The translations under genes and the position numbers were made by a program. DNA of 36,571 nt from a virus (Duplodnaviria > Caudoviricetes), in the IMG/VR virus record IMGVR_UViG_3300017978_000126, positions 1 through 36,571 of that record; one strand, written 5' to 3'. Every line of letters begins with the position of its first letter. Position 1 is the stretch's first letter. The notes beneath the pieces are model-generated. The model had not been told where the DNA came from. It did not search any database and saw only the letters and a list, made by a program, of their open reading frames with translations. Below, one piece after another: positions 7,943 through 33,610 of this stretch.

Positions 7943-9046
7943 TTACTGGCCCAAAAGACCACCTATTCTTGGAACGACCATATTATTATCGTTGTTCATT
8001 ATCACACGCAATTGATCCAGAGGAAATTCGTAATCAAGCCACGGCGCTCTAAGTCTGCGTTCTTCATCAGTCATGTCTAGACGTTTTCTGGTTGCTTCAG
8101 CTTCTACCTCGCCCATGAGTCTTCGGTATTCCTCAAAATTCCCGCCGAACTGCTCAAGCCGATTTGCTTGAGCATCAAGATTTTGTGCCTGTTTTTGCAT
8201 TTGAAGGGCTTGCGATCGCAATCCTGGCTTCAATACTTTTGAAGGGTCTAATGGGTCTTGCGCCATTGCCTCATTGAGCATTGCCTTGGCTTGCGCTCTT
8301 AGTCTGTCCGATTCTTCTCGGTAAAGTTCAGGCATGTAGTCAGGAGAGCCACCTTTTGCAAAGCCCTCTCTAGATTGAATAGCGTGCTGAAGTTCGTGAG
8401 CAACTGTTCCTCTGTTAATGCCTTGCCCTGTCATGCCTGTTTCAATTGCATCGCCAGAGTATGAACCAGCAATTGTCTCATCAGGGCGAACTTTCATCAT
8501 TAGCCGCCGATCAGCATCACCAAAATCAATCAGTCCATCATATGCTTGCTCAAGTTTTGGATGCTGAACAAACTCAGAAACAGGGCCAACGGTTGACTGT
8601 TTAGCCTTATTCTCGGTTCTGCTTGACCACGACCAATCATCTACGGGCTTTGCCAGCAAGCCTTGATCGCTGATTTCTTGCCGCCATTTACCGTCTTTCC
8701 CTTTGAATGTGCCTGTTTTTTCCCAAATTTGTTCTGGAGTAAATTTTCTCTCCATTTTTTTGGCGGCATCGGCGGCTTGCTTGTCCCAAAGTTTTGACGA
8801 TGGCCCAATGAACATTCCCACAGGGTTGTAAGCATCAGCCATCAAGCCAGCCAGACGCTGCGTAGCTGGCCCGTAGTCCATGCCTTCCCGTGCGGCTGCT
8901 GATGTCATTTCGTTAAGGTTACGCGCTCTGTCGTTCAGGTTGCCCACGAACTGCTGTGCGCTCAACACTGGATTGCCAAGCAAATCCGTCAGTTTGCGCT
9001 TGGCTACGTTGCCAGCACTAAAGATTTCACCAAGCAATCCAGCCAT
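7943..9046 (-). CDS. LPD23-like domain plus HExxH zincin metallopeptidase protein
   Basis: IWEKTGTFKGKDGKWRQEISD, VAHELQHAIQSREGFAKGG and YRRLMGEVEA motifs as in large polyvalent protein domains. Confidence 0.78.
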   Translation of the reverse strand: MAGLLGEIFSAGNVAKRKLTDLLGNPVLSAQQFVGNLNDRARNLNEMTSAAAREGMDYGPATQRLAGLMADAYNPVGMFIGPSSKLWDKQAADAAKKMERKFTPEQIWEKTGTFKGKDGKWRQEISDQGLLAKPVDDWSWSSRTENKAKQSTVGPVSEFVQHPKLEQAYDGLIDFGDADRRLMMKVRPDETIAGSYSGDAIETGMTGQGINRGTVAHELQHAIQSREGFAKGGSPDYMPELYREESDRLRAQAKAMLNEAMAQDPLDPSKVLKPGLRSQALQMQKQAQNLDAQANRLEQFGGNFEEYRRLMGEVEAEATRKRLDMTDEERRLRAPWLDYEFPLDQLRVIMNNDNNMVVPRIGGLLGQ

Positions 9047-9573: not shown

Positions 9574-9594
9574 CACAGTTTTGGCTATTTGCCT

Positions 9595-9639
9595 ATTAGG
9601 GTTTGTCCTAGTGGAGTTTTTTGTTGATAACCTGATAAT
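9595..9639 (+). promoter_or_regulatory. Promoter A: operator ATTAGGGTTTGTCCTAGT plus -10 GATAAT
   Basis: Same motif and spacing as at 17926, 13655 and 15966. Confidence 0.7.
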
Positions 9640-10218: not shown

Positions 10219-10553
10219 TGCCAAAGACTCCCACCGACAAATGTTGTTTTTGGTGTAAATGTATTCCTGATGGCTTTTTTCTTCAGGTAGCTCCTGCGGC
10301 TTCTGTCTTCCTGAGACTGCGTTTGCTTTGGCTGTGCGTCTTCACCATCACCAAAACTGTAAATCTTGACTCGGTTACGTCCATCAGTTGCGTTCTTGTA
10401 GTCAATGACGTAAATCATTTTCTGCTTTTTAAGCTCTGTCAGCATCCTGCCTACAGCCTTTGGTGTTGCCCCAGTCTTGTCAGCTAAACCTTGTCGGCTT
10501 GCTGGCCCCTCCATCAGGGCTTTAAATACCTGAACTGCTTGCTCGATATTCAT
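10215..10553 (-). CDS. Winged-helix DNA-binding protein
   Basis: GPASRQGLADKTGATPKAVGRMLTELKKQKMIYV HTH pattern. Confidence 0.7.
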   Translation of the reverse strand: MNIEQAVQVFKALMEGPASRQGLADKTGATPKAVGRMLTELKKQKMIYVIDYKNATDGRNRVKIYSFGDGEDAQPKQTQSQEDRSRRSYLKKKAIRNTFTPKTTFVGGSLWQ

Positions 10554-10720
10554 TCATCCTCCAACAGCTCAACAGCAATCTTGTACAGAATGTCATATGG
10601 ATCTACACCCATCTCCCAAGCTCCTCTTTTTTCCAGCATCTTGTTTAACCTTTTTTCAGCGGGTGATCGTGTGTCAGGAACGATCAAGGCTTTGGTTTCT
10701 TCTTCACTTGCGTAATTCAT
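10550..10720 (-). CDS. Hypothetical protein (56 aa from MNYASEEE)
   Basis: AAGGAG RBS before ATG 10720; ATGA overlaps at both ends. Confidence 0.6.
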   Translation of the reverse strand: MNYASEEETKALIVPDTRSPAEKRLNKMLEKRGAWEMGVDPYDILYKIAVELLEDE

Positions 10721-10782
10721 GAGCAGCTCCTTGTTGTTAAAAGTACCAGCATCACAATGATGAAAGTCCATGCGATTTTCAT
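10717..10782 (-). CDS. 21-aa hydrophobic peptide (MKIAWTFIIVMLVLLTTRSCS)
   Basis: Fills the gap exactly with ATGA overlaps on both sides. Confidence 0.5.
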   Translation of the reverse strand: MKIAWTFIIVMLVLLTTRSCS

Positions 10783-10892
10783 TCGTCATCTCGCTTTCGT
10801 TTGTCCTGCCGCCATATGGCATAGCCACACAGCAGACCGTGAAACCATGTGATGCCCAGCATGATCCATGTGTCGGGGTCTAGTTCTCTCAT
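10779..10892 (-). CDS. 37-aa membrane peptide (MRELDPDTWIMLGITWFHGLLCGYAIW...)
   Basis: AAGGAG RBS, ATGA coupling, one TM-like segment. Confidence 0.6.
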   Translation of the reverse strand: MRELDPDTWIMLGITWFHGLLCGYAIWRQDKRKRDDE

Positions 10893-11287
10893 GGTGTTCT
10901 CCTTGCTTCTGCCAGTGCATCGGTCAGGATGTTGACCTGTCGCTCCATTGCTTCCATCTCTGCTGGCCAACTGTTGCGCTCGTCAGCCCTCTCCTGCTCC
11001 AGCCGTGCCTTGAATGACTCTGCAATGAAGTCAAAGAACACCTTGGCGCTCTCGTCTGCATCGCCAGTAAACGTCATCTCTGGCCCATTGAAGTCCAGCG
11101 TACCCACCTGCTTACCGTCCTGATTATGGAAGGTCATGTTTTGGTTGGGCTTGGTGTCTAAGAAGGCAAACACTGGCTCCGATGGCGGCTTGAATGTGTA
11201 CGCAGGTAGTTCTTCAGGGCACTTGCAAGTTGATGCCGTGCCAAGCTCCCAGCGCTCTCCGCATGTCCAACATTGTCCGTAAAACAT
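10889..11287 (-). CDS. Modular protein with MFYGQC zinc-ribbon N-terminus
   Basis: AAGGAG RBS and TAATG coupling; N-terminus paralogous to 15640-15897. Confidence 0.75.
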   Translation of the reverse strand: MFYGQCWTCGERWELGTASTCKCPEELPAYTFKPPSEPVFAFLDTKPNQNMTFHNQDGKQVGTLDFNGPEMTFTGDADESAKVFFDFIAESFKARLEQERADERNSWPAEMEAMERQVNILTDALAEARRTP

Positions 11288-11406
11288 TATGTGTTCTCCT
11301 TGAGTAATGCACTGATGATGTTGCCGCATCGTTTGCACTGATAGCGGTGTCGATTTGGGTTGCTGCTTAACAAGTCAAGTGGATGCCAGTTGTGTTTGCA
11401 AGTCAT
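11287..11406 (-). CDS. 39-aa zinc-ribbon peptide (MTCKHNW...YQCKRCG), not in the ORF track
   Basis: CxHxW..CxxCG pattern; coupled at both ends. Confidence 0.65.
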   Translation of the reverse strand: MTCKHNWHPLDLLSSNPNRHRYQCKRCGNIISALLKENT

Positions 11407-11828
11407 GAGTTTTTTTCTCGCAGTTTGGCTTCGATGGCTCGTGCAAAATCTTCATGATCCAAGTGGTAAGTCGGCCAATTGTTAAAAATGCTTTCAATAT
11501 CCTCCTCACTCAGCCCAACCCATGTGCGCTGTGGTGGGGTGGTGAAGAGAGGGATAGTGCAATCATCATGCCTTGTTGGATATGCAGTCCAGCACTTAAA
11601 ATCCTTCAAGGCTTCAAGACCTTCTGGATATAGCCACGCCACAGGCTCCTGCTCCTGCTGTGCTGGCTGCTCTGCCAGTGATGGCTGTGCCAGTGCCTTG
11701 TCAATAGCAGCCAATGCAGTAACTGCGTCTTGTCTAGCGTCCCTCCAATACTGCGGGTCTGTTGCATGGCTTGATGCGATTAAGTTGTTAATCGCCAACT
11801 GCGCCAGCTTCATTGCTTTTTTTCTCAT
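11403..11828 (-). CDS. Modular hypothetical protein (AMKLA / LAEQPAQQEQEPVAW / WVGLS / RAIEAKLREKN)
   Basis: ORF track; shares repeat modules with its neighbours. Confidence 0.8.
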   Translation of the reverse strand: MRKKAMKLAQLAINNLIASSHATDPQYWRDARQDAVTALAAIDKALAQPSLAEQPAQQEQEPVAWLYPEGLEALKDFKCWTAYPTRHDDCTIPLFTTPPQRTWVGLSEEDIESIFNNWPTYHLDHEDFARAIEAKLREKNS

Positions 11829-12283
11829 GTGTCCTCCTTGATGTTGTGGGCGGCTTCGATGGCTCTTACAAAGCGGTCTATGCTGTCTTTGGGGCCACCT
11901 TCGGCAACCTGCTTGCTAATTGCTGTTATTTCTTCATACGTCAGAGGCTTGCGCTGTGCTGGCTGCTCTGCCAGTGCTTCTCGCAGGGCGGCGTCAACGG
12001 GCGGGATCGGTATCCAGTGTGTCGGCTTATTCTCAACGGAACATCCAGTTGTCCACCAAGTGTTGCTGTATGCGAGTTGAGGCCACTTGCTGGGCGGCAG
12101 CAACAAAATGAGTTCACGCCCTGTTTTTGGTGCCGTCTCAATCGGTTGCCACTCACGCGCTGGCGGCTCTGCCAGTGCTGCCGCTACTTTTCTCAGCGTT
12201 GTAGCCTGAATGAACACCTGACGACCATGCTCCAGATCGGTAGCCCAAGCCTCCAGCACCTGTCGAATTGCTTCTTTGCTCAT
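11825..12283 (-). CDS. Modular protein with DUF551-like insert
   Basis: WQPIETAPK...PTHWIPIPP pattern flanked by shared modules. Confidence 0.78.
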   Translation of the reverse strand: MSKEAIRQVLEAWATDLEHGRQVFIQATTLRKVAAALAEPPAREWQPIETAPKTGRELILLLPPSKWPQLAYSNTWWTTGCSVENKPTHWIPIPPVDAALREALAEQPAQRKPLTYEEITAISKQVAEGGPKDSIDRFVRAIEAAHNIKEDT

Positions 12284-12429
12284 AGCTTCTCTCCGTTCGT
12301 GATGCCGTGGGCGGCTTCGAGTTTCTGCACCCGCTTAAGCAACTGCAAAAGCAACATTGCAACTTCGTCTCGGTCAAGTTCACCGCTGTTGCTCAGCAGG
12401 TGTCGAATATCTTTTTCAAGGTCATCCAT
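12280..12429 (-). CDS. 49-aa protein ending EAAHGITNGEKL, not in the ORF track
   Basis: AAGGAG RBS, ATGA coupling, shared C-terminal module. Confidence 0.7.
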   Translation of the reverse strand: MDDLEKDIRHLLSNSGELDRDEVAMLLLQLLKRVQKLEAAHGITNGEKL

Positions 12430-12432
12430 GTC

Positions 12433-12738
12433 TTACTCCTTGATGCCGTGGACGGCTATTTCTTCAGGCGTTGCTGTGCGCTCGTAGTCGCAGTGCTTGC
12501 AGCCCATCCGCGAATACTCATTCGGCCAGCTCTTGCGAAACGCCAGCTCGTGCTCGGCGCCGTTCAGGCAATCGGCCTTGCTGGGCTCGTAGTCGAAGCT
12601 GATGTAGGTCTCAAACACGAACGTCTTTTTGCATTCGCTGCATTCGTGCTCATGCTTCACACCTTCGGCATAGCCGTGGCCGTCATCGTGGCAAACCTCT
12701 TGGTCTGCTCCACAGTAGGGGCATTTCATGTCGCTCAT
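12433..12738 (-). CDS. Zinc-finger protein (CPYCG..CSECKK..CKHCD)
   Basis: Start moved to the ATGA overlap at 12738; multiple CxxC; ends AVHGIKE. Confidence 0.75.
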   Translation of the reverse strand: MSDMKCPYCGADQEVCHDDGHGYAEGVKHEHECSECKKTFVFETYISFDYEPSKADCLNGAEHELAFRKSWPNEYSRMGCKHCDYERTATPEEIAVHGIKE

Positions 12739-13370
12739 GCTGCACCGCCTTTCGTGATGCCGTGGGCGGCTGGTAGTGGCATCCAGCGACACTCCCAAGT
12801 GTTGAAGTGCCGTGATGTAGCGCCAGGGCCGTAGTGGAATGAGCCGCCCGTGTGTCGTCCGAAGTAAGTGTTTCCATCGTGACAAAACAAAACCGGCACA
12901 CCAATACCCGGAAGGTATTGCTTCTGCGTCTTGTCGTTCGGGTCAATCCACTCCGTCAGCGGCTGTGCTGGTGGTTGTGGGGATGGATACACATCACGCA
13001 CAGGAACGCCAGCAGCTTCCGTGTTGGCTCGGTGGTTGTTCGTTTCCATGCCGTTGTGCCACTTTCCATCTTGGAAAAACTGCCAACCGCACGGCTCCTG
13101 CTGTGCTGGCTGCTCTGCCAGTGCTTCTCGCAGGGCGGTGCTGGCTCTTTCCTTGGCTTCTCTGATGGATGATCCCCATGTGTCCTTGGACTCCAACGCC
13201 CCCAGCGCCAGCTTCATTGCTTCTTTGCTTTTATCAGTAGCCATCCTTGCTCTCTCGTCAGCACGGACAAGCGCTGCCAGTCTGTGTATCTCAGGCATGT
13301 ACTCCTGAAACAATCCCCAGTCATCACCCGCAGCTTCACGGGCCATCTCAATAGTTGTCTTAGTAGCCAT
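12735..13370 (-). CDS. Modular hypothetical protein (RADER / EAMKLA / LREALAEQPAQQEP / DUF551-like / AAHGIT)
   Basis: GGGAG RBS before MATKTT; contains several of the shared modules. Confidence 0.78.
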   Translation of the reverse strand: MATKTTIEMAREAAGDDWGLFQEYMPEIHRLAALVRADERARMATDKSKEAMKLALGALESKDTWGSSIREAKERASTALREALAEQPAQQEPCGWQFFQDGKWHNGMETNNHRANTEAAGVPVRDVYPSPQPPAQPLTEWIDPNDKTQKQYLPGIGVPVLFCHDGNTYFGRHTGGSFHYGPGATSRHFNTWECRWMPLPAAHGITKGGAA

Positions 13371-13609: not shown

Positions 13610-13655
13610 ATTGTCTAACAGGAGATCAGTCTTTGGAATTAGTAGAAACCCTCAT
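13610..13655 (-). promoter_or_regulatory. Promoter C: operator ATGAGGGTTTCTACTAAT plus -10 GACAAT
   Basis: CTAT start of the motif to ATG is 73 nt, the same as promoters A and B. Confidence 0.7.
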
Positions 13656-13970
13656 AGGGTTTGGCACATCTTTAGGCCACAAACCAAATAAGATCAGTCG
13701 ATTGATCGTATTTTTGTGCGCTTCTTCCCACATAGCCATGCGCTCGGCTTTGGTCATTGATGTGCCTTGGTCAAGCTGGCTGTGACAGGTAAAGCAAAGG
13801 CTTGCAATTAGGTTGTCATCAGCCTTGATGCCTCTACCCTTACCACCACCCCAGTTTGTATGTGCAGCCACCACAGTACCGTCATCAGCACCACAGTGTT
13901 GACAAGGTATTTGTCTAGCAGCCTCAAGCAGTTTCTTGCTGCGGATGTATTTATGCTTCGGGAACATCAT
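13626..13970 (-). CDS. DUF1364/YbcO-like His-Me finger nuclease
   Basis: RSKKLLEAARQIPCQHCG..TVVAAH..GRGIKADD....CFTCH motif. Confidence 0.8.
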   Translation of the reverse strand: MMFPKHKYIRSKKLLEAARQIPCQHCGADDGTVVAAHTNWGGGKGRGIKADDNLIASLCFTCHSQLDQGTSMTKAERMAMWEEAHKNTINRLILFGLWPKDVPNPMRVSTNSKD

Positions 13971-14373
13971 GCTGTTCTCCAATGCTTGTTGGCGACCACT
14001 TAACTTCACGCTCGTCACCAAAAGCGTGAGCCAGCGTTATCAAGTCTGTCATTTCTTGCTTTGTCATCTTGCTGGTTGATGTGCCAAGAACAACAAAGCC
14101 ACCATCTATTCCTGGAATGGCTCGTTGCTTTTTTAGGCCAGCAGTCAGCAAGTCCTTATATTCGTCTTTTGTTAGCTTTTGACCGTGCCACATAACTTGT
14201 CGTGATAAGTCTGTCAGCACTGACCACATTAACTGGTTCTGCTCTTGGCTGCGCTTTTCCTGCTCAATTGTCAGCACCAGCTTATTACCTGCCAACAAGT
14301 AAGGCTTGGCTTTCTGCCAAATGTCTAGCAGGACAGTGTGACCATGTTGAGCATTGTGGAGAGTTACTTTCAT
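13951..14373 (-). CDS. ninB: NinB (Orf) recombination protein
   Basis: RSQEQNQLMWSVLTDLSRQV and PGIDGGFVVLGTSTSKMTKQEMTDLI motifs. Confidence 0.9.
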   Translation of the reverse strand: MKVTLHNAQHGHTVLLDIWQKAKPYLLAGNKLVLTIEQEKRSQEQNQLMWSVLTDLSRQVMWHGQKLTKDEYKDLLTAGLKKQRAIPGIDGGFVVLGTSTSKMTKQEMTDLITLAHAFGDEREVKWSPTSIGEQHDVPEA

Positions 14374-14783
14374 TCCAGCTCCTCCCTGACGCAAACATGG
14401 ACGCTGGCAATGGTGTCATATCTCTTCGTCACATGAAGGCTCACCACTTGAACGTCATCCTTGTAGACAATCCCATTCATAGCATCGAGAAAAGACTTAG
14501 CCACGTTATCAAGGTCAGGTTTCTTTGGCCTCTCCAAACGATTTAAACAGGCTTCCTTGCGCTTTTTTGAATAACTGGCGGGGATTGCATGGTTGATGTA
14601 GATATAGACAGCTACAGGCGTTTCTAGTGGCAATGATGGGCACATTGCTGACAGTGCTTGTGATGCAATCAGGTTTTCATAATCCACAGACTTCTTCGGC
14701 GTGTAGGTGCGGCCTCTTGAAAACCTTGGGCGCTGCTTCCCAATAGGGTCGCCCTCTATGTTAAAAATTAACTGAAACGTCAT
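14370..14783 (-). CDS. rusA: RusA-family Holliday junction resolvase
   Basis: GKQRPRF and KPDLDNVAKSFLDAMNGIVYKDDVQV catalytic motif. Confidence 0.92.
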   Translation of the reverse strand: MTFQLIFNIEGDPIGKQRPRFSRGRTYTPKKSVDYENLIASQALSAMCPSLPLETPVAVYIYINHAIPASYSKKRKEACLNRLERPKKPDLDNVAKSFLDAMNGIVYKDDVQVVSLHVTKRYDTIASVHVCVREELE

Positions 14784-15052
14784 TCTGACTTTCCTGTTGC
14801 TTTGGCAATAGCGGCACGGGCTACGCTTGCTGCGGCATAGTCTTTCCCGCAGCAATCCAAGGCGCACAAAGCATCCTTCAACGCCTCTAACAACTCAGGC
14901 ACTGCGGCGATTAAGCGGGCGTTTTCTGTTCCATGTACCACCTCTGCAACACATTCGCCAATTTCTGACCAATGAATTTGATATTCGGGCAAGCCGCTTC
15001 GAGCCAGTCCAGTTGGGTGGGCTTTCCACGGCCCATGTGTGTGTGTTGTCAT
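14780..15052 (-). CDS. Common phage hypothetical protein (HTxGPW...NARLIAAxPELLEAL type)
   Basis: Recognisable motif; ATGA-coupled. Confidence 0.8.
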   Translation of the reverse strand: MTTHTHGPWKAHPTGLARSGLPEYQIHWSEIGECVAEVVHGTENARLIAAVPELLEALKDALCALDCCGKDYAAASVARAAIAKATGKSE

Positions 15053-15464: not shown

Positions 15465-15643
15465 TTTTTTTCCTTCATATCTTTCAGGATTTTGTCAACA
15501 CTGTCTTTAGTCTCAAAGTACTTTTCAATTGTTTCAACAATGTTTTTTACTCCACCGTGCATTTTTATGAATAGCTTTATTAAAAACCATCCCCAAAAAA
15601 CACCAAGAGCGATTGTTGATATTGGATACTCGTACTCTTTCAT
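15461..15643 (-). CDS. AT-rich small membrane protein
   Basis: One TM segment; ATGA coupling on both sides. Confidence 0.6.
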   Translation of the reverse strand: MKEYEYPISTIALGVFWGWFLIKLFIKMHGGVKNIVETIEKYFETKDSVDKILKDMKEKK

Positions 15644-15897
15644 GTGTTTTTCTCACGCAACTTTTCTTCAATAGCACGACCATAATCTTGGTAGTAATAC
15701 ACTGGCCCCATCTCAAGATGCAATTCCTTGTATTCATCGTCAGTCAAACCGATCCATACGCGATCTTGCAAAGTAGACTGTTTAGCCGATGTGCAAGGCA
15801 TAGAAAACTTGTAATTAGGTAATTTAGCGCATTTGCAAGTGCTGGCAGCACCCAATGACCAGCGTTCTCCACAAGCGTTGCATTGTCCGTAAAACAT
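15640..15897 (-). CDS. Modular protein: MFYGQC zinc ribbon fused to WIGLT..RAIEEKLREKN module
   Basis: AAGGA RBS. N-terminus resembles the 11287 gene; C-terminus resembles the 11403-11828 gene. Confidence 0.75.
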   Translation of the reverse strand: MFYGQCNACGERWSLGAASTCKCAKLPNYKFSMPCTSAKQSTLQDRVWIGLTDDEYKELHLEMGPVYYYQDYGRAIEEKLREKNT

Positions 15898-15921
15898 ATC
15901 AGTTCCTTTCAGTGTGCTTTT

Positions 15922-15966
15922 ATTGTCCACAGCTTTTTCTTGTTTGTCATTGGTACTTACCCTATG
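15922..15966 (-). promoter_or_regulatory. Promoter D: operator CATAGGGTAAGTACCAAT plus -10 GACAAT
   Basis: TAGGG to -10 spacing is 37 nt, as in promoters A and B. Confidence 0.65.
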
Positions 15967-17898: not shown

Positions 17899-17970
17899 AG
17901 ATTACATGGAAAAAAGCATCTGTCTATTAGGGTTTGTACGGATGTTTTTTTTGTTTTAGGGTCATAAGAT
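17899..17970. promoter_or_regulatory. Divergent early control region (promoter B) with central operator ATTAGGGTTTGTACGGAT
   Basis: Operator centre 17934.5 is 30.5 bp from both the rightward -10 (TAAGAT, 17965) and the leftward -10 (TAATCT, 17904). Confidence 0.75.
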
Positions 17971-18297: not shown

Positions 18298-18437
18298 CCG
18301 ACTTTGAAGGCGTACAATTCTGCGCTTACTGCTGTGAAGAGCGAGGAGACAAACGCTCTTGCTGTCAGGAAAATCACTGGGTTGAGTATGAAGACCTGGA
18401 TGAAGAAACTAAAAACTCACTGAAGGAATCAAAATGA
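18294..18437 (+). CDS. 47-aa Cys-rich protein (CAYCC..SCCQENH)
   Basis: GAGG RBS; ATGA coupling at both ends. Confidence 0.7.
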   Translation: MTDFEGVQFCAYCCEERGDKRSCCQENHWVEYEDLDEETKNSLKESK

Positions 18438-19042
18438 ATGTCTATCAAAAACTGAATGCTGCTCGGGCTAAGTTCCACAGCATTGAACTCAAGAAGTCAG
18501 GCCACAACAAGTTTGCTGGTTACAAGTACTTTGAACTTGGCGACTTCATCATCCCCGCCTTGGGAATCTTTAAAGAGTTTGGACTGACAGGCATCATCAG
18601 CTTTGGCAAAGAAACTGCTGATCTGCGGATTGTCAACAACGAAAAGCCAGAAGAGGTAATCGTTATTGAGTCGCCCATGTCTAGCGCAGCTTTGAAGGGC
18701 TGTCATGAGGTGCAAAACCTTGGCGCAGTGCAGACATATTTACGCAGGTACTTGTGGGTTGCAGCCCTCGAAATCGTTGAACACGATGCCCTTGACTCGT
18801 CAAAGCCTGTTGAGAAAGTAATCATCACCCCATCGCAAGGTATTGCAGACAGCATTCCTCCAGAGGAAATGCAGTACCTACAAGAATTAGCAGTCGAGTT
18901 GATTGCTAACGTAGCTGAAGGCAATCCGAAACAAGCACTTACAAGGCTTGATGCGGAGGCGCTAGAGGCAGATCAAAAGGTCGCTTTGTGGTCACTGCTG
19001 GACAGCAAGACCCGTTCGGCCATCAAAAAAGCAAAGGAATGA
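18434..19042 (+). CDS. erf: ERF-family single-strand annealing protein
   Basis: KKSGHNKFAGYKYFELGDF and QNLGAVQTYLRRY motifs. Confidence 0.88.
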   Translation: MNVYQKLNAARAKFHSIELKKSGHNKFAGYKYFELGDFIIPALGIFKEFGLTGIISFGKETADLRIVNNEKPEEVIVIESPMSSAALKGCHEVQNLGAVQTYLRRYLWVAALEIVEHDALDSSKPVEKVIITPSQGIADSIPPEEMQYLQELAVELIANVAEGNPKQALTRLDAEALEADQKVALWSLLDSKTRSAIKKAKE

Positions 19043-27723: not shown

Positions 27724-29232
27724 TTAATCAGCAGAGATGCCAAACTCAACCGAAAGCTGGCGCTTGATCGCGTTCATTTGTGTTGGTGTTGCCTTCTTCA
27801 AATCAACTTGATATTGTTTTGCAAGTTCAGCGGCACGATCATTGATAAGTTTTGGAACATTATCTAAAGGTACATCTTTGAAAGACAAACCTTTTCTCAA
27901 GATGTAAGCATTACGAGCCTCAACAAGCCGCAATTCTTTCATTGTATTGTTGAGTTTTGCTTGGAATTCTGTAGGACTATCGCCATCAAAAATTCCTTGT
28001 CCAGCACTTGGCAAACCAGCCTCAATTCGGGCAGCTTCCTGAATGCCCATAGAGGCTCCAGTAAGTGCTTTAATTGTCTGACTCAAGTTGTTAAGGGTGT
28101 TCTGCTTGAACTGAGAAAACTGTGCAAGTGACTGCTTTTCTTCTGGAGCAAGATTTGCACCAGATTTTTCTTTGATTGCCGACCATGCTTGACCAGCCTT
28201 AAACTTTGGCTGCAAATATTCTGGCTTAAACTGACTTTCAATCTGGTTATACATTGAAAGACGAGAGCCAGATTCAAGCAATGAGGTCTGCAAATCTTTT
28301 GCAACGCCTTTGTCTGGAGCCAAAGCGCCTGGAGGATAAACAACAGTGGCACTTTCTTTTCTTGCTTCTTTTGAAAGTTTGCCAACCATTTCATTTTGTT
28401 CTTTGGTCAGCTTTGTTGGGTCATTTGTACCAAACATCCTCAAAGCAATGTTGCTTTCTGTGCCAGTCAAAAGTGGCGGCTTGTCTGACAATTTACCAAC
28501 CATTTCATTTTGCTCTTTGGTCAATTGTGTTGGATCATTTGTCCCAAAAAGACGCAAGGCAATGTTGCTTTCTGTGCCAGTAAGAAGTTGTGGTTTTTTC
28601 GATCCGCTGGCTACAACCTCGATTTTGCCTGTCAATGGATTAGTGCGGATAAGTTGAGTATCGGCAGCAACAGAAGTTGTTTCGCCAGCCAGTGCTTTTT
28701 GCAAGTTAACAAAATTAAGCAATGATTTTTGGCCTTCTGGCGATGCAGACAATGCTTTAAATACATCTTGATTCAGACCAGCAGCACGACCAGCAACAGG
28801 AGCAGCCGCCCCCGGCATCATGTTGCCTTCATCATCCATCAAAGGCATCTGAGTTTCTTGACCATAATATTGCGCTGGTATCGCAGCAATTTCTGGTTGC
28901 ATCAGGCTTGGTAAAAGTCTGTTTGCCATTGTTTGACGGGCCAAAGCCTCTTTTTCAAGTTTGCGCTTCTCAAGCAAATCTTTCATCTGAAAGCCCTGCA
29001 ATTGCTCTTGCAGTTGTTCTTGCATTGCGCCTTTGTACAGCTTCTGGCCTTGCTGCAAGCCTTCAGCAATAGATTGACCAGTGTTGCCACCTTGGAACAA
29101 TCGAGCGGCCAAGCCATAAAGAGCCTGTGCTTGTGCGTCTTCACGGTTGCGCTGAATGTCACCAGCACTCATGCCCAAAAGGCCAAGAGTATCAGTGCCA
29201 CCAGTGCCGAAAATGTCAAGTAATCCAGCCAT
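27724..29232 (-). CDS. Internal virion/ejection protein with 38-aa tandem repeat
   Basis: Position in the ejection cluster; MAGLLD start; Gln-rich. Confidence 0.7.
   Translation of the reverse strand: MAGLLDIFGTGGTDTLGLLGMSAGDIQRNREDAQAQALYGLAARLFQGGNTGQSIAEGLQQGQKLYKGAMQEQLQEQLQGFQMKDLLEKRKLEKEALARQTMANRLLPSLMQPEIAAIPAQYYGQETQMPLMDDEGNMMPGAAAPVAGRAAGLNQDVFKALSASPEGQKSLLNFVNLQKALAGETTSVAADTQLIRTNPLTGKIEVVASGSKKPQLLTGTESNIALRLFGTNDPTQLTKEQNEMVGKLSDKPPLLTGTESNIALRMFGTNDPTKLTKEQNEMVGKLSKEARKESATVVYPPGALAPDKGVAKDLQTSLLESGSRLSMYNQIESQFKPEYLQPKFKAGQAWSAIKEKSGANLAPEEKQSLAQFSQFKQNTLNNLSQTIKALTGASMGIQEAARIEAGLPSAGQGIFDGDSPTEFQAKLNNTMKELRLVEARNAYILRKGLSFKDVPLDNVPKLINDRAAELAKQYQVDLKKATPTQMNAIKRQLSVEFGISAD
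28376..28587 (-). repeat. Two-copy 114-bp in-frame tandem repeat
   Basis: LLTGTESNIALR(L/M)FGTNDPT(Q/K)LTKEQNEMVGKLS twice; ccaacc at 28382 and 28496. Confidence 0.92.
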
Positions 29233-31296: not shown

Positions 31297-32741
31297 CGCG
31301 TACCTTGCCCAGACAAGTCAACATTCAATGACACAGCAGTTGTCCAGTTGCTTCCAGTTGGAACAACCTTGAACCGATGATAGTTCCCATTGGATCGCAA
31401 AGACACACGGTTTTCATAGTCGGCAGCGACAGCAGTGCCAAACGTCAAGCCCTCGCTCAAAAGCGTCCTAGAAGCCACGGAAACGGTCGCAGAGCCGTTA
31501 TCTACCTGCGGCCTAGCCAATGTCACCACCGAGCGCCCACCAGCGTTTAAATCGCCTGTAACCAGTTGACCAGTAGCAGGTGCGCCGTTGTACGTCACCA
31601 CATAAGCGCCAGACGTTCCACCGAGGAAGTACTTGCCGCCCATATAAAGAATCGAGTCCAGGCTTACAGGCAAAGCATCAATGCTAGAAGAAATAGCATC
31701 CAAGCCTTCAAGCGTTGTTGCAGATGTTGAAGCATCTGAGATGTAATCTGTCCCAGCATCGCCATACGTCCATTTTTGTGTTTTAAAGTTGTAGATGATG
31801 AGCTGGCGCTGTGCAAAGGATGTTTTAAAGTTCCAGATAATCAGCTTACGAACAGGATCAACTGCTGCGCTCATTGTGTCAAAGGCGCTCTCGTCTGCAT
31901 TAGAGAAAAACCAGCGATCTACCTTCTCGGAGCCAATGCCCTGCACTTGCTGACCATCGCACATATAAAAGCCATCGTCCGACAAGAAGAACGTCACGCC
32001 TTGAGTCTGAGCAATTGAACCTGCTGCAATACAGCCCTTGCCACGGCTGATGTTGTCAAACTGGAAGATGAAGGGTGTGCCGATGTAGGTCATCCGGCTG
32101 ATACCCTTTTCCATGAACACCAGACCAAACTCACCACCACGGATGCCAACGATCTGACCGCCATCAGCGATGTCTTGAAAGTCAGCCTGAGTGACTTGGC
32201 TTGAACCCCATGCGGTTTCATCGTTGATGCCAGACCAGCGAACCCGAGATGGGTAAGTGGTGCTTGACTCATTGGTGAACGCAGTCACAACGAAATCACG
32301 AACAACAGTCAGGAACCTGCAAACAGGAGCGCCAGCAGCAAGGTCAGCAAACGCTGTTGATGTACCCAATGTATAGGCTTGCATTGGGTCACTGAAGTTT
32401 GTCCCAATAATCACATTGCCAAACTGAGTGAAACGAAAACGATCATTGAAGGCGTTGGGCGTATAGCCACCAGATTTTGATACCTCTGTCAGTGCGCCAA
32501 CACCAGACACATCGTAAATCTTTGTCAGTCCAGAAGCAAACAGCTTTGTGGCGTTGGCAGGAGTCTTTCCGGCAACCAGTGTCGTGAGGTTTTCAGCGGC
32601 AGCAGCAGAAAATGTCGCAGCAGTCGGCAAAGGCCCGTAACCAATGGCTTGAGAAACCACGTTCTTGGCATCGGTCAAAGCGCCCGAGATACCTGGCTGG
32701 TCTGGCATCCATTCGCCAAATGTTAGTGTTGTAGTTGCCAT
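31293..32741 (-). CDS. Tail hub/nozzle protein (P22 gp10-like)
   Basis: 482-aa beta-rich protein with FGEWMPDQP, VRWSGIND..W and IGSEKVDRWF motifs; tail-module position. Confidence 0.75.
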   Translation of the reverse strand: MATTTLTFGEWMPDQPGISGALTDAKNVVSQAIGYGPLPTAATFSAAAAENLTTLVAGKTPANATKLFASGLTKIYDVSGVGALTEVSKSGGYTPNAFNDRFRFTQFGNVIIGTNFSDPMQAYTLGTSTAFADLAAGAPVCRFLTVVRDFVVTAFTNESSTTYPSRVRWSGINDETAWGSSQVTQADFQDIADGGQIVGIRGGEFGLVFMEKGISRMTYIGTPFIFQFDNISRGKGCIAAGSIAQTQGVTFFLSDDGFYMCDGQQVQGIGSEKVDRWFFSNADESAFDTMSAAVDPVRKLIIWNFKTSFAQRQLIIYNFKTQKWTYGDAGTDYISDASTSATTLEGLDAISSSIDALPVSLDSILYMGGKYFLGGTSGAYVVTYNGAPATGQLVTGDLNAGGRSVVTLARPQVDNGSATVSVASRTLLSEGLTFGTAVAADYENRVSLRSNGNYHRFKVVPTGSNWTTAVSLNVDLSGQGTR

Positions 32742-33610
32742 GAGTTATTCCCGTTCGATGATTGCGCCCATGTGTTGCTTGACGCAGCAACATCAGACCA
32801 AGTGTTATCAGAAACGCTTATCGGAGTCCATGCGTTTGAGTCGCTTGATACTGGTGACCATGTGTTATCAGACTCAACAACATCTTGCCAACTTCCGCCA
32901 TTTGATGCGCCTACCGTGACAGATACAGTGCAGGAGACTGAAGCAGCGCCAGCATAGTCAGCAGTGGCCGCAGCCTCAACATCAGCCACACAAGTGACAG
33001 ACGCAACACCATCAGCAACAACACCACCCAGAGCCGTAACAGTTGCTGTGCATTCAACAGCAGCGTCAGCAGTTCGCACCCTGATTGCTTCAGCACTGAC
33101 ACTTGCGTCAGCCGTTACGCTGGCAGAAGCATTAGCAACGATACCGCCAAGAGCTTCAACAGTTGCAGTAGCAGTGATGGCAGCATCGCCAAACTGAACC
33201 CGTGTGCCACTTGCCGTAACAGTCGCATTCGCGGTGATTGCACCAGACCCGAATTGAACCCGAGTTGCATCAGCAGTGACTGTTGCATCAGCGGTTACGG
33301 CAGCACTTGCAAACTGGACTCTTGTTGCGTCAGCAGTTACCGTAGCCGTTGCGGTAACGCTTGCATCAGCAAATTGCACCCTTGTAGCGTCAGCAGTTAC
33401 AGACGCAGTACAGGTTACAGAAGCCGATGCAAGTTGAACACGGACAGCATCAGCCGTTACTGTTGCTGTTGCATTGACGCTTGAGTAAGCATCCCACAGC
33501 GTGACCGATGTTATGTAGAGTTCACTGTCCAGCGTGAGCGTCAGATCATCAAGACTAGCTTTTAGCTGGTCAAGACTATCTATTGTCCACGGTGGCAGTA
33601 AATCAGCCAT
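32723..33610 (-). CDS. Ala/Thr/Val-rich repeat protein (putative fibre/filament)
   Basis: About ten 20-aa repeats (ASAxVTAxATVTADATRVQF) followed by six Trp residues at 10-aa spacing. Confidence 0.8.
   Translation of the reverse strand: MADLLPPWTIDSLDQLKASLDDLTLTLDSELYITSVTLWDAYSSVNATATVTADAVRVQLASASVTCTASVTADATRVQFADASVTATATVTADATRVQFASAAVTADATVTADATRVQFGSGAITANATVTASGTRVQFGDAAITATATVEALGGIVANASASVTADASVSAEAIRVRTADAAVECTATVTALGGVVADGVASVTCVADVEAAATADYAGAASVSCTVSVTVGASNGGSWQDVVESDNTWSPVSSDSNAWTPISVSDNTWSDVAASSNTWAQSSNGNNSWQLQH

Follow-up and report, generated by a model that had tools for sequence, protein, structure and literature searches.

Short conserved sequences at which phages exchange accessory DNA have been described in a small number of systems. 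In the T4-type phages RB49 and phi1, according to the available part of the report by Arbiol et al. (2010, PMC2839356), PeSL cassettes consist of intergenic promoter and stem-loop elements that move whole genes, and mini-circles of them were shown. In the gp38 adhesins of T-even phages, conserved glycine-rich motifs (GRM) within the gene flank hypervariable segments (HVS), and it is inside or close to these motifs that exchanges are often located (PMC3157838, available part). Here we describe the window, i.e. the whole 36,571 nucleotides of the virus record IMGVR_UViG_3300017978_000126 (Caudoviricetes), and within it an array at 10889-13370 of seven short minus-strand genes, mostly overlapping, which run from G1 (12735-13370) to G7 (10889-11287) and are composed of variable segments separated by short conserved joints. 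The array belongs to an extensive family of short accessory genes of phages, and new members of the family probably arise by ordinary homologous recombination between phage genomes at shared in-frame joints. Many unrelated freshwater phages share these joints as almost unchanged DNA, the freshwater habitat being deduced from relatives only. As judged by sequence comparison, it is a real example of linker-type shuffling at the sub-gene scale, and an uncommonly clear one.

The locus resembles the PeSL cassettes and the Botstein-Campbell linker model in that short conserved repeats in a hyperplastic accessory region would be homologous-recombination sites for the gain, loss and replacement of small ORFans, and also in that no site-specific recombinase is identified in the available part of the PeSL report (PMC2839356). 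Unlike PeSL, the joints are coding, in frame and located inside open reading frames (ORFs), the moving units are sub-gene segments, and unrelated backbones share the joints. Promoter-like sites are not above chance, as 7 sigma-70-like sites were found against 8.1 expected, so that the 'promoter C' to which the sequence-only reading had assigned the genes was discarded; hairpin or cruciform joints are likewise unsupported, as folding of six joints gave z values between -1.9 and +0.5, with no sign of a hairpin or stem-loop. Replacement of accessory sequence by recombination between repeats is indicated here comparatively, by breakpoints at the joints. The gp38 gene is, in the available text, a single essential structural gene with strict motif synteny (PMC3157838), whereas several genes per genome are involved here, the number and order of modules vary (23 architectures), fusions cross gene borders and the proteins are probably non-structural; no tail family or fold match that would indicate a gp38-type adhesin was obtained for the family proteins of the window. 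What differs from the known linker cases is that shuffling is in frame, below the gene level, and extends across many genes and unrelated backbones.

The sequence-only reading had reported repeats of 39, 30, 21, 18 and 14 bp in the array. All are present where it placed them, and there is one of 24 bp besides: 39 bp at 11953/13100, 30 bp at 11651/13094, 24 bp at 11657/11953, 21 bp at 12296/12751, 18 bp at 11801/13205, and five of 14 bp. In total the array contains 13 maximal exact repeats of at least 12 bp, compared with at most 4 in any non-overlapping 2.65-kb interval, where the longest repeat (23 bp) belongs to a tandem-repeat structural gene. The statement that every repeat is direct and in frame holds for the 11 of 11 joint-related repeats of at least 14 bp that were checked and fails for two 12-mers that are out of phase, one in the ribosome-binding stretch of the next gene and the other a chance match. 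The AEQPAQ joint (all joints being on the minus strand) is found in G1 at 13094-13138, from which 39 bp recur exactly in G4 (11953-11991) and 30 bp in G5 (11651-11680). The SKEAMKLA joint of G1 (13205-13229) shares 18 bp with 11801-11818 and 14 bp with 12267-12280, and the AAHGIT terminal joint of G1 (12751-12771), directly upstream of the ribosome-binding site and overlapping start of the next gene, shares 21 bp with 12296-12316. The QRTWVGL joint of G5 (11494-11540) is without an exact partner in the genome.

G1 (211 aa) is composed of a RADER N-terminal module, an SKEAMKLAL joint, a variable segment, the LREALAEQPAQQEP joint, two more variable segments and an AAHGI end, and every one of its segments recurs elsewhere beside other partners. 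G5 (11403-11828, 141 aa) is the canonical family member, with the order joint-V1-joint-V2-joint-V3-joint. G4 (11825-12283, 152 aa) has an SKEA start, an ALAE joint, a DUF551-like segment without a Pfam match, an LREALAEQPAQ joint (the 39 bp identical to G1), KPLTxEEI and an RAIEA/AAHNI end, while the 49-aa G3 (12280-12429) closes with an EAAHGIT joint whose 21 bp are identical to G1. The Cys/His-rich, zinc-ribbon-like G2 (12433-12738, 101 aa), for which zinc-ribbon Pfam matches were weak and below the cut-off, has a degenerate AAHGI-type end and is present as a whole in L135 at 79% identity. At its KLREKNS end, G5 is coupled to G6 (11287-11406), a Cys/His gene of 39 aa, and G7 (132 aa) has an MFYGQC zinc-knuckle-like start, a middle domain and a RADER joint that is recognizable as peptide only. 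Module reuse in six of the seven genes, as first proposed, thus stands in part: exact joints of at least 14 bp connect four genes (G1, G3, G4 and G5), and in G2 and G6 the sole joint is a terminal one of degenerate sequence. Similarly, reuse of the RADER module is seen at the peptide level, but only 16 of 28 nt agree at the DNA level. The two segments originally called DUF551-like have no Pfam match, either with the whole proteins (E<=0.1) or with the segments (E<=5). DUF551 was found in another family member (P0119, E 7.6e-9), and lies below the cut-off in a member from phage DSL-LC05 that can be aligned with G4. None of G1-G7 has a Pfam match above the cut-off, and in particular the Ead_Ea22 coiled-coil domain (PF13935) is absent from all array proteins in the Pfam scan.

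An eighth family gene (15640-15930, minus strand) lies outside the array, at a distance of 2.3 kb; it has a 17-bp start in common with G7, and WIGLTDDE and RAIEEKLREKNT C-terminal joints. On the other side, the relatives of the minus-strand gene at 10550-10828 share its first 38-48 residues only, and in L611 that start is fused to another domain. As this gene is a mosaic, the shuffled zone reaches left of 10889.

Exact copies of the 24-bp core of the AEQPAQ joint are present in 63 stretches of IMG/VR and in 60 from metagenomes. Around this core lie 56 other distinct proteins, which follow one plan, joint-variable-joint-variable-joint-variable-joint, with unrelated fillings. The family form of the QRTWVGL peptide is present in approximately 670 IMG/VR stretches, and a search with G5 returned 3,615 protein clusters at E<=0.001; among the 120 G5-matching clusters listed, most are single-member and none is informatively named. 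Matches in BFVD and the ESM Atlas are also mainly uncharacterised phage proteins. With a motif model, which 0 of 3,000 shuffled ORFs pass, we collected 301 family ORFs in 244 loci, with 23 joint architectures, and 299 of the 301 align with no other when 85% of both lengths must be covered. Summed over contigs, depth in four aquatic metagenomes is highest over joints, with loose ends at the joint edges; in metagenome X1 it reaches 3,303 in the bin 11387-11603 versus approximately 2-150 in non-joint bins, a value that adds many organisms and shows only that many contigs carry the joint. These four runs contain 0.20-0.26 of the words of the region, and this phage is not in them. We also observed a mobile 18-residue module (ALDKKAENARELGLDYEP type; e.g. 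L003 2047-2601 and P0010), which recurs in many unrelated family genes at more than 90% DNA identity and behaves as joint and cargo alike.

Breakpoints were analysed as the ends of segments common to non-redundant family genes, these ends not being independent of each other. The shared tracts are in the same frame in 459 of 468 cases. With hubs defined from the data, 415 of 485 unique tract ends (86%) fall at a hub versus 46% expected, and the excess is seen in all six settings (68-90% versus 34-58%). With strict, motif-defined joints, 227 of 485 unique ends lie in a joint versus 28% expected, and the 'both genes' (123 versus 37) and single-gene (182 versus 128) counts are above the null. The expectation that breakpoints cluster at joints was therefore borne out. 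Assortment around the joints points in the same direction. The 110 AEQPAQ sites comprise 89 left types and 95 right types in 108 combinations; all 15 repeated left types occur with at least two right types, and 10 of 11 repeated right types do so in reverse. Among 27 site pairs with a common left flank, the right flank is also common in only 2.

Individual genes give the same picture. Comparison of G5 with its 119 best homologs revealed one variable segment in common in 71, two in 1, three in 0 and none in 47, and the first 40-57 residues of G1 continue in at least 8 different ways past RADER. Chimeras of the parts of this array exist in other phages: L179 joins the G1 start to the G7 middle domain, P0053 and P0020 join the G1 start to V3 (the last segment) of G5, and P0056 joins the G7 start to V2 (the middle segment) of G5. 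In L016, V1 of G1 is present at 92%, and identity begins and stops at the joints. Syntenic relatives keep both flanking genes while the array is wholly replaced, which, together with the recombined parts, agrees with the prediction that module order would not be fixed among relatives. In L022 (784-2006), the place of the array is taken by ParB-like and ABC-type ATPase-like genes located right after the DUF968-like gene. A G7 homolog in L117 (381-1070) is fused to a domain that constitutes a separate gene in L010 (3803-4108), i.e. a fusion or fission at a gene boundary.

The joints are also conserved at silent sites. Scans that allowed every synonymous codon found dominant DNA words: one for ALAEQPAQQEPV in 20 of 25 contexts, two for QRTWVGLTDEE that account for 70 of 115, and one for EAMKLALEALE in 43 of 107. 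Fourfold third-position identity was 0.94, 0.75 and 0.83 in these 25, 115 and 107 contexts, respectively. The codon bias of the window predicts 0.29-0.35. As controls, an invariant peptide of the adjacent DUF968-like gene gave 0.41, its 31 contexts being 31 different words, and a scan of cellular genomes gave 120 matches with unrelated codons and a fourfold identity of 0.40. A paired test was made with the 38 of 81 loci that hold both the neighbour gene and a joint detected by its protein motif. Fourfold identity was 0.747 for joints versus 0.395 for the neighbour gene, and the joint was higher in 301 of 327 locus pairs, or in 12.1 of 13.6 pairs on average when each locus was used once. In 192 pairs with a neighbour gene below 0.4, joint identity was still 0.714. 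Second positions differed little (0.89 for joints versus 0.82), in comparison with fourfold sites (0.73 versus 0.36). The suggestion that synonymous sites at the joints are over-conserved was thus upheld within the same phage pairs (0.73-0.75 versus 0.36-0.40 in the neighbouring gene), and, because silent sites are kept in the paired tests, the joints are uniform as DNA, beyond the peptide.

Frequent exchange could bring about such uniformity, and so could selection that acts on the DNA. A broader proposal, which we regard as possible though doubtful, builds on the second option: the joints might serve unrelated freshwater phages as a common interface in the DNA, the uniformity of which is maintained by selection and with which any two co-infecting phages could build in-frame multi-domain early proteins from thousands of segments, the whole forming a recombinase-free combinatorial generator of host-directed effectors that works on parts of genes and across phage families.

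As to where the exchange takes place, the sequence-only reading had proposed that an ERF-type annealing protein shuffles the array within its own genome. Its observation that ERF, NinB and RusA are encoded here is correct, as profile scans of the window proteins identified an ERF-family annealing protein (18434-19042, plus strand; Pfam ERF E 2.5e-7; PHROG 155), NinB/Orf (13951-14394, minus strand) and RusA (14370-14867, minus strand). The idea of ERF-driven internal shuffling was not confirmed. Joint copies have a nucleotide identity of 0.823 within a locus versus 0.815 between loci, and the joint also occurs beside Sak or Sak4, or without any annotated annealing protein. In the neighbourhoods of exact 24-mers (21 of 63 loci examined, 64 of 124 long ORFs scanned, flanks of approximately 5 kb), we found Erf (L142), Sak4 (L093), Sak (L087), DNA polymerase (L085, L092, L098, L123) and integrase (L099, L113), with an ERF match inside the fetched flank in only 1 of 21 loci; the cultured phage DSL-LC05 has two family genes and no annotated annealing protein. 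ERF is consequently a likely but not specific catalyst, and is context only. Gains and replacements need a second genome, because by geometry a crossover between direct repeats on one chromosome only deletes. Taken together, the sequence comparisons favour exchange between genomes over shuffling within one.

The most elaborate form of the opposite view, namely a dedicated diversification system, we consider unlikely. In such a system the joint DNA would be selected, or would be a protein-recognised hotspot, and a phage would reshuffle its own array during growth, yielding deletions and circles similar to those of PeSL. In its favour, exact 39- and 30-bp in-frame repeats are found together in this genome. 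AEQPAQ fourfold sites, moreover, are the same in all of 168 comparisons, although variation is seen at second positions (0.946), and joints are slightly more alike at fourfold sites within a locus (0.81) than between loci (0.75). However, overall identity is nearly equal within and between loci, as given above, the joint-bearing loci examined have no recombinase in common, and the joint folds lack a hairpin signal. A weaker point is that no joint-to-joint deletion of the array occurs among the listed joints of the four metagenome runs, in which this phage is absent; nor was a circle seen, such as the sequence-only reading had envisaged for 11953/13100.

For exchange between genomes, we suggest that the crossovers are the work of any annealing protein or host recombinase that happens to be available (Erf, Sak, Sak4 or RecA), in co-infection or against a prophage. 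The joints would often be the sole homology between such phages, so that exchange would be funnelled there, and repeated exchange would keep the joints uniform. The exact repeats in this genome would then be several draws from a common pool, with occasional deletions also possible. In the available text of PMC3945230, Rad52-like recombinases, including Erf, are reported to act on sequences that are short or have diverged, with homology left behind where mosaic segments meet. Such relaxed recombination would supply the likely chemistry. Protein-fragment shuffling and domain mosaicism in phages are documented in PMC10684548, which, as far as available, treats accessory proteins of unknown function as an under-sampled reservoir of mosaicism; the general domain mosaicism is the same as here. 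Fixed reusable in-frame joints are not described in the available portions of either paper.

One reason why the recombinants would be viable is the preserved reading frame. In the AlphaFold model of G5 (50 sequences; pLDDT 84, pTM 0.43), three parts can be distinguished, namely a helical hairpin, a small domain that the EPVAW and PLFT strands delimit, and a pair of helices at the end; AEQPAQ forms a low-confidence linker. G5 is accordingly predicted by the model to be three small domains on flexible linkers, in which the two halves of a joint may clamp each insert; the joint peptides in general would be clamping helices or strands and linkers of small independent domains. The terminal joints would, in addition, bring the ribosome-binding site of the next gene. 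They extend into that site and into the overlapping start, so a swap there keeps translational coupling, and the unrelated phage L083 carries a unit of a G5-type end plus G6 in another backbone. No fold was assigned, since there was no PDB match at E<=0.001, and a weak Foldseek match to Aqs1, an anti-activator from a phage (E 1.8), was set aside because the sequences did not support it. The pathway of recombination, the structural rationale and what these proteins do are inferred here rather than observed.

Several points weigh against recombination at shared joints as the source of the family. The evidence is all comparative and no recombination event was observed. Among the AEQPAQ sites, no locus joins the left flank of one window copy to the right flank of another, and the left-right graph is without cycles, so that there is no four-gamete-type proof. 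In the breakpoint tests, 'either gene' ends lie in a strict joint in 234 cases, compared with a null mean of 224 and a maximum of 261; the tract ends form 19 clusters, the largest with 90 genes, and the hub definition also takes widely shared modules as joints. The list of G5 homologs was clustered at 90% identity, which hides near-identical full copies. An ordinary conserved peptide reaches 0.73 at fourfold sites among 8 close relatives, and the silent-site argument therefore rests on the paired tests only. Finally, the substrates in the available part of PMC3945230 are 700-800 bp long, i.e. longer than the exact joints here (14-39 bp).

It is also conceivable, though very improbable in our estimation, that illegitimate recombination joins sequences at random, that only fusions at domain boundaries survive protein-level selection, and that the joints are uniform owing to a recent expansion. 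The joints do match predicted domain boundaries and linkers, so selection alone would gather the surviving breakpoints there, and the ribosome-binding sequence in the terminal joints explains their conservation without recombination. Silent sites, however, escape protein-level selection, yet internal joints retain an identity of 0.71 in the 192 pairs with a neighbour below 0.4, a gene close to saturation. The non-redundancy of 299 of the 301 genes and the probable kinship with P22 EaA (see below) argue against a young, simple expansion. The remaining idea, that one gene was duplicated in this lineage and the repeats are left over from tandem paralogs with diverged middles, fits copies that are clustered in the same orientation, but is largely refuted, and has hardly any likelihood left, as the middles are unalignable within the genome yet 80-96% identical to segments of other phages with different neighbours, and the same joints occur in unrelated backbones.

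The family may be placed next to the lambdoid ea genes. In the available text of PMC10834534, variants of Ea22 are called mosaic, and their C-terminal domains can be exchanged. PHROG 60 is matched by 14 and PHROG 660 by 13 of 50 family members in an alignment (best E 8e-6 and 6e-6), over those parts of the profiles that P22 EaA also matches with its N-terminus; the cargo of EaA consists of DUF550 and DUF551. Neither PHROG 60/660 nor Ead_Ea22 is matched by the proteins of the window itself, and a direct profile comparison with EaA (hhalign) gave a probability of 4%, which is not significant. On the basis of the profile matches, the family is probably distant kin, by descent, of the lambdoid EaA N-terminal module. 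By analogy with the ea genes, the host is the likely target of the cargo segments, at an early stage of infection. In the early accessory array of P22 (L610), an exact 26-bp direct repeat lies where eaD and eaF start (4482-4507/4838-4863), and may be a joint in this well-known phage. In the literature searched, we found no description of DNA-level joints or population-wide assortment for EaA/Ea22 genes, nor any of the present joints or gene family, subscription journals being mostly outside the coverage. Older work on lambdoid 'boundary sequences' may cover related repeats.

The linker model, in which exchange takes place at conserved short sequences, has long been the rival of random joining followed by selection, and its clear natural cases are few. 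The present family provides a large, quantifiable intragenic case, in which silent-site conservation and breakpoints both indicate the joints. It also suggests a route of origin for very many 'hypothetical proteins' of lake phages. In practical terms, de Bruijn assemblies could break or be mis-joined at the joints, and, if the cargo acts on host defences, the joints would delimit a searchable library of small domains.

The window represents one complete circular podophage genome of 34,892 bp plus a terminal overlap of 1,679 bp (direct terminal repeats; classed complete). It encodes SU10-type capsid, portal and adaptor proteins, a terminase and an O-like initiator. A scan of 57 window proteins revealed no integrase, invertase or reverse transcriptase, in line with the earlier view that no site-specific recombinase is needed. 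Shufflons and other site-specific invertase systems rely on inverted repeats and a dedicated recombinase, and diversity-generating retroelements on a reverse transcriptase with template and variable repeats. Unlike the former, the repeats here are direct and no recombinase family is present among the scanned proteins; unlike the latter, these proteins include no reverse transcriptase, and the longest non-terminal exact repeat is 39 bp. Limnohabitans was considered as a host lead and dropped, the single contig inspected being without a family gene.

Some further features of the genome were recorded. A 367-aa gene with an LPD23 (large polyvalent protein) domain (7943-9046, minus strand) is inserted immediately upstream of the terminase genes. 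In the structural region, degenerate 60-bp tandem repeats occupy 33003-33475 within the gene 32723-33610, and a 114-bp duplication is located at 28372-28596 within the gene 27724-29232. Upstream of the array, where the DUF968-like gene ends, there is a 17-bp palindrome (13646-13662), which only 5 of 72 relatives have in the same position, and a related 14-bp exact repeat is located at 9593-9606 and 17924-17937, ahead of two other gene blocks. The palindrome and the related repeats are a possible operator or promoter element.

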